Source: Candidatus Bathyarchaeota archaeon (GTDB lineage Archaea > Thermoproteota > CALKCG01 > B24 > DRYS01). From it: a DNA stretch of 64,000 nt. Where the stretch lies: assembly GCA_018396535.1 (NCBI GenBank), contig JAGTQC010000005.1, forward strand, positions 1 through 64,000. The letters run 5' to 3'. Of the stretch, positions 20,550 to 59,315 are shown piece by piece. Position 1 is the stretch's first letter. Each line of letters begins with the position of its first letter. Below the pieces are notes generated by a model, which had not been told where the DNA came from, searched no databases, and was given only the letters and a program-made list of their open reading frames with translations. Made by a program: the position numbers and the translations under genes.

Positions 20550-20913
20550 GTACTAAAAGTATAGCCAATAAGATTAATATCAACGTTGTGATAGCTACTG
20601 CTAGACATATTCTATCCTCCTCGAATATAAGAACCAGTATGCCCAATATTATGCGTAGTACAGGTGTAGCTACCATAACTATGAGCCCTAGCATTATGAT
20701 GGATAAACCTTCGAGCATTATCAAACCCTTGTACAACATACTATAATCCAATGCACCCGTATTCACGGGTGTGTATGGATCTATAAGTATATCTATGGGA
20801 TATCCTAGACTATCTCCTTTAACAAACAGCAATGTTATACCTAGCATTATTAGGCCTATACTTATTATAGTGCAAATCTTTAGTATGCTGCTCAATACTA
20901 GTTCAAGCTTCAT
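20536..20913 (-). CDS. DUF1634 family membrane protein
   Basis: II.LG..V.VATPV.R motif, 3 TM helices; overlaps the tauE-like gene by ATGA. Confidence 0.75.
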   Translation of the reverse strand: MKLELVLSSILKICTIISIGLIMLGITLLFVKGDSLGYPIDILIDPYTPVNTGALDYSMLYKGLIMLEGLSIIMLGLIVMVATPVLRIILGILVLIFEEDRICLAVAITTLILILLAILLVPRIV

Positions 20914-21872
20914 CTAGCATCACCTATACGTGGGCTACGCAGTATAACGAATAATATGCAGATAGCTACTACCATACTTATGGCGTATTGTTGAATCCTA
21001 GGTATCGGTATGTATCCGCTCATATCGACACCCCGTAGAATCATATTAATGGATAGATACCCTAAGACCATTATGAAGATCTGCCTAACCCGTTTACCGC
21101 TTATCCTTGATAGGATTCTAGCTCCTATTCTAGCTCCTATCGACACTCCTATGATGGAAACCGCAGCTAGAATAGGATGTATATAACCTAGGCTCCAATA
21201 AATCATACTAGTTGTAGCAGATGTAGCTCCTATGATGAAACTACTCGTGGCAGTAGCGATTTTTATAGGTAGATTCATAGCCCAATCCAAGCCTACAACG
21301 TTGAAAGCCCCTCCACCTATACCTAGCATACCAGCGGAAAAACCTGAAAAGAATAGTATACACTCAGCTAGCCACCATCTAACGCCGTAGTACTCTACGA
21401 TACTCTTACATGATGAATCATAGTATTTACCGTATAGCTTGAATACTCTAGTTGTCCAATCTGGAGGCTTAACATTCGTAGGTTCCCCCCTCCCCCTTCT
21501 AACGGTGAGTATCATGGAGATTAGGCTCATAAATCCGAATACTATGTACATTAGCCATGTTAACCCAGATGAGTATACGTAGTGAGCTGTTAAAGCTCCT
21601 ATTACCGCCCCTATTATCGTCGATAATTCGATAACCATACCTATTCTCGCATTCGCTAACCCATTTTTAACGTATACGCTAGCTGCACTACACGATGTAG
21701 CTATGGTGGATATAGCCGATGCTCCGGTTGCATACTTAATCGGTACTCCCAAGAATAGTGTGAGTATAGGTGTAAGTAAAACTCCTCCACCAAGACCTAT
21801 TACAGAACCTATCACTCCTGCTAAAACTCCTACAGAAGCTACTTCTAAGAGTTCTATTAGCGCGGTTATGAT
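20910..21872 (-). CDS. Sulfite exporter TauE/SafE family permease
   Basis: GLGGG..LTP.L and GMLGIGGG repeats, A.ATS.F. The frame is open upstream of the track's GTG (21815) and encodes the first TM helix; putative start ATC 21872 after GGAGGTG. Confidence 0.82.
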   Translation of the reverse strand: MITALIELLEVASVGVLAGVIGSVIGLGGGVLLTPILTLFLGVPIKYATGASAISTIATSCSAASVYVKNGLANARIGMVIELSTIIGAVIGALTAHYVYSSGLTWLMYIVFGFMSLISMILTVRRGRGEPTNVKPPDWTTRVFKLYGKYYDSSCKSIVEYYGVRWWLAECILFFSGFSAGMLGIGGGAFNVVGLDWAMNLPIKIATATSSFIIGATSATTSMIYWSLGYIHPILAAVSIIGVSIGARIGARILSRISGKRVRQIFIMVLGYLSINMILRGVDMSGYIPIPRIQQYAISMVVAICILFVILRSPRIGDAR

Positions 21873-45498: not shown

Positions 45499-45575
45499 AG
45501 CGGGGTGGGGTAGCCAGGAAACCCGCCGGGCTCATAACCCGGAGATCCCTGGTTCAAATCCAGGCCCCGCTACCA
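45499..45575 (+). tRNA. Initiator tRNA-Met (CAT), no intron, CCA encoded
   Basis: AGCGGGG/CCCCGCT acceptor stem with A1-U72; anticodon arm CCGGG-CTCATAA-CCCGG with three consecutive G-C pairs; GGTTCAAATCC T-arm; ends ACCA. Confidence 0.96.
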
Positions 45576-56930: not shown

Positions 56931-57016
56931 ATATATAAACATTACCCAGTTTACAGGGTGGAAAGTTTATTAGGGATTATCTTCCCTATATGAGTAGGCT
57001 AATCGGGGATAGATCG

Positions 57017-57691
57017 ATGAGTCTTACCAGAGTTCAGCGTGATATATTGAGGAAGACTGTTGAAGAAGTCTTTAAGCTTATAGAGGGTAATCCTCGTAGA
57101 TTTAAACAATCCCTAGAACTTATAGTGAATCTAAGAGATATAGATCTGAAAAAGCCTGAAAATAGATTTGTAGAAGTTATATCCCTACCGCATGGATCTG
57201 GTAAGCCTGCTAGGATCTGTTTAATAGCTTCGGGTGCTCTAGCTTCTCAAGCTAAAAATGTAGGAGTGGATCTTATATTAGATCCGAATGATCTAGCATC
57301 GTATGGTAGTGATAAGAGGAAGGGGAAGAAGTTAGCTAGAGAATATGATTTCTTCCTAGCTGAAGCTCAATATATGGGTCTCGTAGGTAGATATCTAGGT
57401 ACATTCCTAGGTCCGAGAGGGAAAATGCCTACACCTATTACACTAACAACATCTCTAGAAGATATTGTAAAATCTCTTAAGAACAGTGTTAGAATTAGGG
57501 TTAGGACAAATCCTCAAGTAAAGTGTAGGATTGGTATTGAAGGTATGACGGTGGATGAGGTAGTTGATAATATAGAATCTGTCTTTTCTAAAATTATAAG
57601 TAGGATGCCTAAAGGTATGGGAAATGTAGATAGTATATATCTGAAGGGTACTATGACCCCTGCTATTAAGGTAAATTTAAGTAAGGTGTGA
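57017..57691 (+). CDS. rpl1: 50S ribosomal protein uL1
   Basis: R.FKQS.EL..NL..IDL..P.NR, LPH, DFFLA, LGPRGKMP, TM.P. Confidence 0.95.
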   Translation: MSLTRVQRDILRKTVEEVFKLIEGNPRRFKQSLELIVNLRDIDLKKPENRFVEVISLPHGSGKPARICLIASGALASQAKNVGVDLILDPNDLASYGSDKRKGKKLAREYDFFLAEAQYMGLVGRYLGTFLGPRGKMPTPITLTTSLEDIVKSLKNSVRIRVRTNPQVKCRIGIEGMTVDEVVDNIESVFSKIISRMPKGMGNVDSIYLKGTMTPAIKVNLSKV

Positions 57692-57694
57692 TAG

Positions 57695-58645
57695 ATGTCT
57701 ACTGTAAAATTGTCTATTAAAAAGGAGAGAAAGATAAAGCAGTTTGAAGAATTGAAATCACTTATTTTAAATTATCCTACCATTATCGTAGCTAGATTAT
57801 ATAGGGTTGATGCTAATTATCTGCATGATCTAAGGATAAAATTTAGGGGAAGAATGATTTTCAAAGTTGCAAAAAATACATTATTTAAGAAAGCTTTAGA
57901 AGAAGTTTATGGTAAAAATATAGAAATAGATAAATTTAGTTCTATATTATTTGGTGAAAACGTATTTATATTCACTAAAGATAACCCTTTTAAAGTATAT
58001 TTAGATTTATATAGGAGTAAGATATTTGTATCCCCATCACCTGGAGATATAGCGCCAGATGATATAGTTATACCTGAAGGGGATACAGGTATACCACCTG
58101 GACCTGCTATAAGTGATTTCAGTCAATTAGGTATCGAAACCAGAATAGTTAAGGGTACTATACATATCGTTCGGAGTAAGGTTCTAGTGCATAAAGGTGA
58201 GAAGATATCGCTAGAAGTTGCTAACCTTTTATCGAAACTCGGTATGAAACCTATAGCTATATGGCTTGATCCTAAAGGAGCTTTAACCGATGGCATCTTC
58301 ATACAGGAGGATGTATTAAAGATAGATCCAGAGATTTATAGAGGTATATTTAGAGACGCGGTATTATCCGCCTTCAATTTAGCAGTTAGCATAGAGTATC
58401 CGACTGTAGAAGTTCTACCTACGCTTATACTAAAAGCTCACAGTATAGCATTATCGTTAGCTTCGTATATAGCCTTACCTATGCCTGAGATGATTATGAA
58501 TCATATAGTGAAAGCTGTAGCGATCGCTAATACCTTATACTCACTAATCGAGGGTAAAACTAAAGAGAAGGAGGAAACTTTAAAAGAGGGAGAAGAACCT
58601 AGTGAAGAAGAGGGGTTGGGAGGTCTAGCCGCCCTCTTCGGATAG
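57695..58645 (+). CDS. rpl10: 50S ribosomal protein uL10 (P0)
   Basis: KNTL, NPF, GDIAP.DI.IP.G.TG..PGP, C-terminal GL.ALFG. Confidence 0.95.
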   Translation: MSTVKLSIKKERKIKQFEELKSLILNYPTIIVARLYRVDANYLHDLRIKFRGRMIFKVAKNTLFKKALEEVYGKNIEIDKFSSILFGENVFIFTKDNPFKVYLDLYRSKIFVSPSPGDIAPDDIVIPEGDTGIPPGPAISDFSQLGIETRIVKGTIHIVRSKVLVHKGEKISLEVANLLSKLGMKPIAIWLDPKGALTDGIFIQEDVLKIDPEIYRGIFRDAVLSAFNLAVSIEYPTVEVLPTLILKAHSIALSLASYIALPMPEMIMNHIVKAVAIANTLYSLIEGKTKEKEETLKEGEEPSEEEGLGGLAALFG

Positions 58646-58658
58646 GAGGTGGTGGAAT

Positions 58659-58979
58659 CTGGAGTATATATATGCAGCTCTACTCTTATACCACTCTGGA
58701 CAGAAGATAGATGAAGAGAATTTAAGGAAAGTATTAAATGCAGCATCGTTAACACCAGATGAAGCTAGACTTAAATCACTAGTAGCAGCTCTTTCAGAAG
58801 TAGATATCGGTGAGGTTATAAAATCTGCAGGGGTATCCATATCTACTCCAACTCAGGTAGCAACTACAGCAAGTAGAGTAGAATCTAAAGCTGCGGAAGC
58901 TAAAGAAGAGAAGAAGGAGAAGGAGAAGGAAGAGGAGAAGGAAGAAGCCTTAGAAGGGTTAGCTGCATTATTCGGTTAA
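58659..58979 (+). CDS. rpl12: 50S ribosomal protein P1 (aL12), CTG start
   Basis: Not in the track. CTG GAG TAT ATA TAT GCA GCT CTA CTC TTA = (M)EYIYAALLL..., 106 aa, ending EEALEGLAALFG. Confidence 0.93.
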   Translation: MEYIYAALLLYHSGQKIDEENLRKVLNAASLTPDEARLKSLVAALSEVDIGEVIKSAGVSISTPTQVATTASRVESKAAEAKEEKKEKEKEEEKEEALEGLAALFG

Positions 58980-59012
58980 CGATGACCGGTGAAGGTAACT
59001 CGATACTGCTAG

Positions 59013-59315
59013 TCATCTTAATGGTATCCTCTTAATAGTGCCGCATCTAAGACATGTTATTACGACTTTAGTAACTCCATCAGATCGTATTCTTATACGA
59101 CATGTATATCCTGGCACTATGAAACGTTTACATTTCTTACATAATAGATATCGCTTATATATTCTTGGTATTCTAACCTTTGCTTTCATGGAGATCCTCC
59201 GAGCTATCTCTATATACCTATCTGCTCTCCTCGGATTTTTTTCGAAGCATTTTAATGCCAGTTCGAATAATTTCTCTATCCGCTCCAAGGCTATCTTCTT
59301 CCTTCTTCTACTCAT
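59013..59315 (-). CDS. rnp4: RNase P protein component 4 (Rpp21)
   Basis: IA.ERI..LF.LA, RY...A..IS.K, CKKC...PG, CLRCG..KR.P. Confidence 0.92.
   Translation of the reverse strand: MSRRRKKIALERIEKLFELALKCFEKNPRRADRYIEIARRISMKAKVRIPRIYKRYLLCKKCKRFIVPGYTCRIRIRSDGVTKVVITCLRCGTIKRIPLR

Follow-up and report, generated by a model that had tools for sequence, protein, structure and literature searches.

Translation of the ribosomal stalk protein P1 (L12; gene rpl12) encoded in the window (the whole 64,000-nucleotide stretch of DNA analysed here, which belongs to an uncultured hot-spring archaeon) very probably starts at a CUG codon at position 58659, led by a Shine-Dalgarno (SD) sequence and read by initiator Met-tRNA. 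This assignment, made from the DNA sequence, follows from the lack of any ATG, GTG or TTG in the P1 frame, which is closed by an in-frame TAG ten codons upstream, from the orthology of the codon with the P1 start of relatives, from a GGAGG spacing of 9 nt that matches the mode of the genome, and from parallel near-cognate cases in the same genome. The same codon is present in contigs from three separate studies, and the gene that it heads is under purifying selection.

Anatomy of the P1 start region

The features of the operon and of the start region are as follows.

56990–57691, + strand: L1 gene, the first in the L1-P0-P1 operon (open reading frame; Pfam Ribosomal_L1, 4e-51)
57695–58645, + strand: P0 (L10) gene, starting at ATG and ending in a TAG at 58643–58645 (open reading frame; Pfam Ribosomal_L10 and RL10P_insert)
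58626–58628, + strand: in-frame TAG that closes the P1 frame upstream (sequence and translation)
58645–58655, + strand: SD GGAGGTGGTGG, 11 nt, opening with the final G of the P0 stop (sequence)
58659–58661, + strand: CTG, putative P1 initiation codon and the only in-frame CTG of the gene (start-codon alignment with relatives)
58659–58979, + strand: P1 (L12) coding sequence, 106 codons and a TAA at 58977–58979 (Pfam Ribosomal_60s)

An earlier note on this DNA had placed the CTG at the Met position of the conserved N-terminus MEY(I/V)YAALLL, and this is borne out by its alignment with the P1 starts of relatives. The in-frame TAG which it reported is present, and its statement that no ATG, GTG or TTG lies between this TAG and the CTG holds well beyond that interval: an open reading frame listing with extended start codons finds none in the entire frame (58629–58979) down to the TAA. 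When extended start codons are allowed, CTG 58659 is the first permitted codon. The ten codons upstream of it are CCG CCC TCT TCG GAT AGG AGG TGG TGG AAT, and the GTGs within the SD (58649 and 58652) are out of frame, as had been noted. Only AAT (3 nt) separates GGAGGTGGTGG from the CTG, which is followed by GAG TAT ATA TAT GCA GCT. The first of the two GTGs opens an out-of-frame ORF of 21 codons (58649–58714, + strand) which overlaps the P1 start; no separate SD precedes it, and its translation is improbable.

The product scores 53.8 bits in the Pfam family PF00428 (Ribosomal_60s), whose curated cut-off is 28.1 (E = 3e-14), and its translation displays both the dimerisation helix of the family at the N-terminus, (L/M)EYIYAALLLYH, and the acidic tail GLxALFG at the C-terminus, EGLAALFG. 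The gene is single-copy and lies directly 3' of P0, which fits the archaeal L1-P0-P1 arrangement. Gene order, tight spacing and P1 copy number are the same as in the known L1-L10(P0)-L12(P1) operon of archaea, and the start codon is the sole difference that we saw. The P0 stop overlaps the SD and ends 13 nt before the CTG.

The P1 start codon in relatives

P1 was found in 39 relatives and the start region could be read in 29. Across the resulting 30 genomes, including the one studied here, the start position is occupied by ATG in 21, TTG in four, ATC in two, and GTG, ATA and CTG in one each. The CTG therefore aligns with ATG, TTG or GTG in 26 of the 29 relatives, comprising the two congeners, both with TTG, and 24 others. 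The earlier note had proposed to look at rpl12 in sister genomes, and there both congeners show the same layout of stop, SD and start (TAG-GGAGGTG-7 nt-start) as well as the TTG. P1 residues 1–15 are identical in all three congeneric species. Among the 16 species representatives of the GTDB class, a CTG-started P1 occurs in this genome only. A search of 400 sampled Thermoproteota genomes with the pattern CTG-GAR-TAY-RTN-TAY-GC returned five other matches, none of them in P1. On this alignment the CTG is a lineage-specific change, which would have arisen by a T-to-C transition from the TTG that is kept in the two sister species.

Codons ATA or ATC at P1 Met-1 in many families were at first taken as further near-cognate starts, and most of these loci proved ambiguous because an in-frame GTG lies three codons upstream within a GGAGGTGAT motif. 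The loci in question, P1 genes of other Thermoproteota families (L075–L083, L086, L088, L089, L092, L093, L027 and L028), have a conserved (T)TGGAGGTGATTAAT-like motif, after which ATA or ATC occupies Met-1. The upstream GTG sits in the SD-like motif, often with a TTG five codons upstream, and a TATA-like box is found about 25–30 nt further upstream. Their candidate starts are either the GTG, used with a short leader or leaderless, or the ATA/ATC behind an SD. The only clear case is P1 of G018 (L031, contig C8), which has ATA at Met-1, with GGAGGTGGTGAGGT immediately ahead of it and a TGA in frame two codons upstream. This looks like an independent near-cognate P1 start in another family.

Other candidate near-cognate starts in the genome

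The genome was surveyed for SD-preceded codons in frames that have no canonical start upstream, and the candidates were then checked against Pfam. When 5' extensions were scored by codon usage, antisense shadow ORFs dominated the result, and the score served only to choose candidates for the Pfam step. The candidate genes are listed below with the putative start codon, where one is assigned, and the position of the first canonical codon (ATG, GTG or TTG).

LivG-like ABC ATPase: CTG immediately after a TAG, with GGAGGTG 7 nt upstream; first canonical codon 47, past Walker A
Methionyl-tRNA synthetase (MetRS): CTG, after TGA-GAA; first canonical codon 38, past the HIGH motif
AP_endonuc_2 TIM-barrel protein: CTG; first canonical codon 55
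CooC/MinD-type ATPase (Pfam CbiA): ATA; first canonical codon 44
Ribosomal protein L30e: ATC; first canonical codon 30
Pyruvoyl arginine decarboxylase (PvlArgDC): ATC; first canonical codon 48
GH4 glycosidase: ACG; first canonical codon 22
Sulfatase: ACG; first canonical codon 14
FtsY (L041), G000:C1:154458–155381, − strand: conserved N-terminus upstream of the first canonical codon, 79
2-Isopropylmalate/homocitrate-synthase-like protein (L042), G000:C1:93399–94952, + strand: conserved N-terminus upstream of the first canonical codon, 79
DUF488-like protein (L043), G000:C11:46312–46770, + strand: conserved N-terminus upstream of the first canonical codon, 67

For the LivG-like, MetRS, AP_endonuc_2, CbiA, L30e, PvlArgDC, GH4, sulfatase and FtsY proteins, the Pfam domain begins before the first ATG, GTG or TTG. 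Relatives provide further information on several of these starts. The livG start is TTG in both congeners, making this a second TTG-to-CTG switch in the species. MetRS starts with CTG in all three congeners and with ATG in G012, a member of a neighbouring family, and L30e starts with ATC in all three congeners. Four relatives have ATG, TTG or GTG where PvlArgDC has its ATC; a fifth (G001) likewise has ATC there, with a TTG one codon upstream. From these comparisons rpl12 appears to be one of at least about ten genes with near-cognate starts in a 1.4-Mb genome, and it is the member with the highest expression demand.

The enrichment of CTG behind SDs was also assessed statistically. In frames that have no nearby canonical start, CTG occupies the SD-spaced position in 3 of 22 cases against a background of 1.4% (p = 0.003), and in a larger set in 4 of 56 against 0.95% (p = 0.002). 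The synonymous codons CTA, CTC and CTT, which serve as a control, are found there in 0 of 22 and 2 of 56 cases, with a background of about 8%. When all seven near-cognates are pooled, the excess at SD-spaced positions is not significant (6 of 22 versus 15%, p = 0.11). The statistical case is thus one for CTG, and homology carries the remainder.

One candidate, the ribosomal protein S17 gene (CTG at C1:52616), was set aside as ambiguous, its GTG at codon 10 preceding the Pfam domain. Within the window, a gene for a TauE/SafE-like membrane protein (20910–21872, − strand) has ATC/ATA behind GGAGGTG and its first canonical codon, a GTG, 18–19 codons in, and may be another gene with a near-cognate start. 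Three other frames begin inside their proteins. That of aIF5A (L044; G000:C7:49013–49309, + strand) encodes the C-terminal part only, beginning ...PKHGSAKARIVG, with the N-terminal half missing from that frame, pointing to a frameshift, an intron or a fault in the assembly. The aIF5B-like frame (L045; G000:C12:4066–5712, − strand) begins mid-protein after an in-frame stop, in the G2-G3 region (...IDTPGH), such that the G1 motif must lie elsewhere, possibly owing to an intein, an intron or a frameshift. The Cbf5 frame (L046; G000:C1:62867–63658, + strand) begins mid-protein near the catalytic Asp region.

Proposed initiation at CUG led by the Shine-Dalgarno sequence

No 16S rRNA gene was found in the genome itself (93% complete), and the anti-SD was taken from the 16S rRNA of the congener G002. 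Its 3' end reads ...GGAUCACCUCCU, giving an SD consensus of GGAGGTGATCC. The P1 leader pairs with this congeneric 3' end over nine positions, one of them a G-U pair, with a predicted energy of −16.7 kcal/mol. Counted from the last G of GGAGG, the CTG lies at a distance of 9 nt; for the ATG and TTG genes of the genome the mode is 9–10 nt, and nearly all SD-led starts fall within 6–12 nt of GGAGG. There is no sign that the SD has been strengthened to compensate for the CTG, the value of −16.7 kcal/mol comparing with −20.6 and −15.8 kcal/mol in the sisters that use TTG.

The window also contains a gene for the tRNA that would be expected to read the codon.

45499–45575, + strand: initiator-type tRNA-Met with a CAU anticodon, A1:U72 and three G:C pairs closing the anticodon stem (ARAGORN)

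Inspection of this tRNA revealed no visible adaptation to CUG. The aIF1/SUI1 protein, inspected by eye as another possible source of tolerance, looks ordinary, having its zinc knuckle as well as the RFGK and ICACGGT...LQGDHR motifs that are usual for it. Across initiator tRNA, aIF1 and SD strength, no cause of near-cognate tolerance was found. ARAGORN also called a tRNA-Met(CAT) at G000 114446–114587 (− strand), with a 46-nt intron and an odd structure. It may be a false call, or else a tRNA of the elongator or Ile2 type that contains an intron.

These elements suggest how P1 synthesis would begin. Pairing of GGAGGUGGU with the 16S 3' end (9 bp, one G-U) would position the small subunit so that its P site holds the CUG lying 9 nt downstream. 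The ordinary initiator Met-tRNA (CAU) would read CUG there, with a first-position C-U mismatch replacing the U-U mismatch of the ancestral UUG; the position concerned would be the same one that is mismatched at UUG and GUG starts. The P1 protein would begin Met-Glu-Tyr-Ile-Tyr. What the sequences themselves show is the anatomy of the start region, its support in populations, the orthology of the codon, purifying selection and the parallel cases in the genome; we infer the initiation event itself, Met as residue 1 and the efficiency of the start. Ribosomes that terminate at the P0 stop may add to the flux, and would not be required for it. The CTG would persist owing to a tolerance, in this lineage, of near-cognate start codons behind strong SDs.

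The earlier note considered a weak start codon unexpected for a protein needed in multiple copies per ribosome. The idea that CTG is a weak start is an expectation drawn from E. coli and eukaryotes, and in this organism the codon may not be especially weak, because CTG, ATC and others head several essential genes and the CTG of MetRS is kept genus-wide. A broader proposal, to which we give slightly less than even weight, is that the genus has a heritably relaxed start-codon check, under which CUG (and AUC, ACG and AUA) would be routine and reasonably efficient behind a long SD. The relaxation would stem from an alteration of the initiation machinery that neither the aIF1 sequence nor the initiator tRNA gene reveals; candidates are a modified rRNA or tRNA, aIF2, and the great stability of the SD duplexes at high temperature. 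If this proposal is true, near-cognate starts would suffice even for MetRS and for P1, the gene in greatest demand per ribosome, and drift from UUG to CUG would be nearly neutral in the genus. Against initiation at near-cognate codons stands a report that aIF1 of S. solfataricus rejects the near-cognate AUU (PMC4705826).

Alternative explanations for P1 synthesis

The alternative that survives best, although we regard it as unlikely, is that P1 is made solely by termination and reinitiation after P0, with no de novo initiation at the CUG. Ribosomes that have finished P0 would be held by the overlapping SD and would restart at the nearest start-like codon under relaxed checking. The overlap of the P0 stop with the SD, so close before the CTG and kept in both congeners, is compatible with this, as are livG, which overlaps its upstream ORF, and L30e, which starts 14 nt past the stop of an open frame of 1289 codons. 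Classic coupled cistrons overlap (e.g. ATGA). Other near-cognate genes tell against it: MetRS and the CooC-like, PvlArgDC and GH4 genes have no upstream ORF of at least 60 codons ending within 80 nt, and coupling is therefore not needed for near-cognate starts in this genome. Moreover, the stalk contains about six copies of P1 per P0, a ratio that one-to-one restart alone cannot supply.

Less probable is a start at some other non-canonical codon, either the ATA at 58668–58670 (codon 4) or an AGG within the SD, which would give P1 a different N-terminus. ATA is a near-cognate codon, and it stands at Met-1 of P1 in the relative G018. The ATA at 58668, however, is 18 nt from GGAGG, beyond the 6–12 nt range, and a start there would cost the dimerisation helix its conserved Met-Glu-Tyr, a stretch that does not vary among the three congeners. 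The AGG codons belong to the SD and have no SD of their own.

It is at least as improbable that an elongator Leu-tRNA(CAG) decodes the CUG to give an N-terminal Leu. A tRNA-Leu(CAG) gene is present in the genome, but the Leu-tRNA pathway for CUG depends on eIF2A, a eukaryotic factor. The ATC, ATA and ACG starts of the genome point the same way, in that one mismatch-tolerant initiator tRNA explains all of them while codon-specific elongators do not. Such decoding has been suggested for certain CUG starts of eukaryotes, and mammals offer a reported precedent in Leu-tRNA-dependent CUG initiation (reviewed in PMC4705826).

Inspection also led us to reject a +1 frameshift by which ribosomes would pass from P0 to the frame of P1: the shift would have to fall within 58629–58642, where neither a slippery nor a conserved signal is present, and its product would be a P0-P1 fusion.

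Support for the C at 58659 and selection on P1

The genome is a metagenome-assembled draft (1.41 Mb, 14 contigs, 93% complete) and all of the read support comes from contigs, which leaves room for the view that the CTG is an assembly or consensus artefact, or a disabling mutation in a recently inactivated P1. To assess support in public runs, Logan contigs (not raw reads) of four runs were compared over 58200–59100. A contig from run X1, the possible source (depth about 96), has C at 58659 and no difference from the genome. Run X5, from another study (depth about 70), provides a 12-kb contig with 0 differences over 58567–59100 and again C at 58659. In run X7, from a third study, there are 11 differences over 58200–58766 and none at 58659; this strain is about 2% divergent, and its four SNPs inside P1 are all synonymous. 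The contig of an RNA run, X12, covers 58662–58833 and ends short of the CTG.

The earlier note had named an A at 58659, or another copy of rpl12 with an ATG start, as findings that would speak against a CTG start. Contigs from three separate hot-spring metagenome studies have C at this position, not A or T, and there is no second P1 copy in the 93%-complete genome, the only other match genome-wide being the acidic tail that P1 shares with P0. A sequencing or assembly error at 58659 can be excluded, while the contig consensus could hide a minor T allele. The dN/dS of P1 against the two congeners is 0.13 and 0.06 (at dS 0.8–1.4), and P1 is under strong purifying selection and has been maintained since the change from TTG to CTG. 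An artefact or inactivation is largely refuted and has a very low probability: the C is common to three independent studies and a divergent strain, selection on the gene is strong and the strain SNPs are silent, P1 is an essential single-copy stalk protein, and like starts recur in further essential genes.

Relation to known initiation systems

Reviews give the archaeal start codons as AUG, GUG and UUG (PMC4705826). The CUG, fixed in natural populations as the sole possible start of an essential, six-copy stalk protein, together with some ten further genes, argues against this limit, and suggests that in some lineages of archaea the stringency of start-codon choice itself evolves. In 36 prokaryote groups, a switch from UUG to CUG was recorded for 1 of 2,468 ancestral UUG starts (Belinky et al., PMC5622118), and prokaryotic genes started by CUG or AUU have been described as few (PMC5622118). 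Ribosome profiling of Haloferax volcanii found about 30% near-cognates among putative alternative initiation sites, which were set aside (PMC7261190).

Bacteria and eukaryotes already provide examples of near-cognate initiation; the unusual features of the present case are its density in one small archaeal genome and its use for a stalk protein and an aminoacyl-tRNA synthetase. The start list of NCBI table 11 includes CTG, ATT, ATC and ATA, and the AUU of infC is a bacterial example. As in the present case, the bacterial starts have a single-mismatch codon, initiator tRNA and an SD, and are missed by gene finders that accept only ATG, GTG and TTG. They are, however, very few and often regulatory, whereas this genome has at least two UUG-to-CUG switches (rpl12 and livG) and about ten genes. 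The initiation factors also differ, being of the archaeal/eukaryotic type here (aIF1 and aIF2) where the bacterial system has IF3. In eukaryotes, CUG is the best-tolerated non-AUG codon and is used with eIF1/eIF2-type factors, which are homologous to aIF1 and aIF2. Eukaryotic CUG starts, by contrast, involve scanning and a Kozak context and usually serve minor isoforms or uORFs, whereas the CUG described here would be the sole start of a ribosomal protein in high demand.

Gene callers restricted to ATG, GTG and TTG cannot call this P1, and they truncate MetRS, L30e, FtsY and others. Genes missed or truncated in this way distort the annotation, completeness estimates and marker-gene sets of the lineage.

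The closest resemblance is to the SD-led UUG and GUG starts of Crenarchaeota (Sulfolobus-type), which, like P1, combine an internal cistron with a long SD that is complementary to GGAUCACCUCC and mismatch the CAU anticodon at the first position. The sister species, with their TTG, match Sulfolobus-type UUG/GUG initiation exactly. The genome studied here differs from it in having C as the first base, outside the three accepted archaeal starts (PMC4705826). Its CTG and the TTG of the sisters, set in the same SD and spacer context, provide a natural comparison for the efficiency of CUG.
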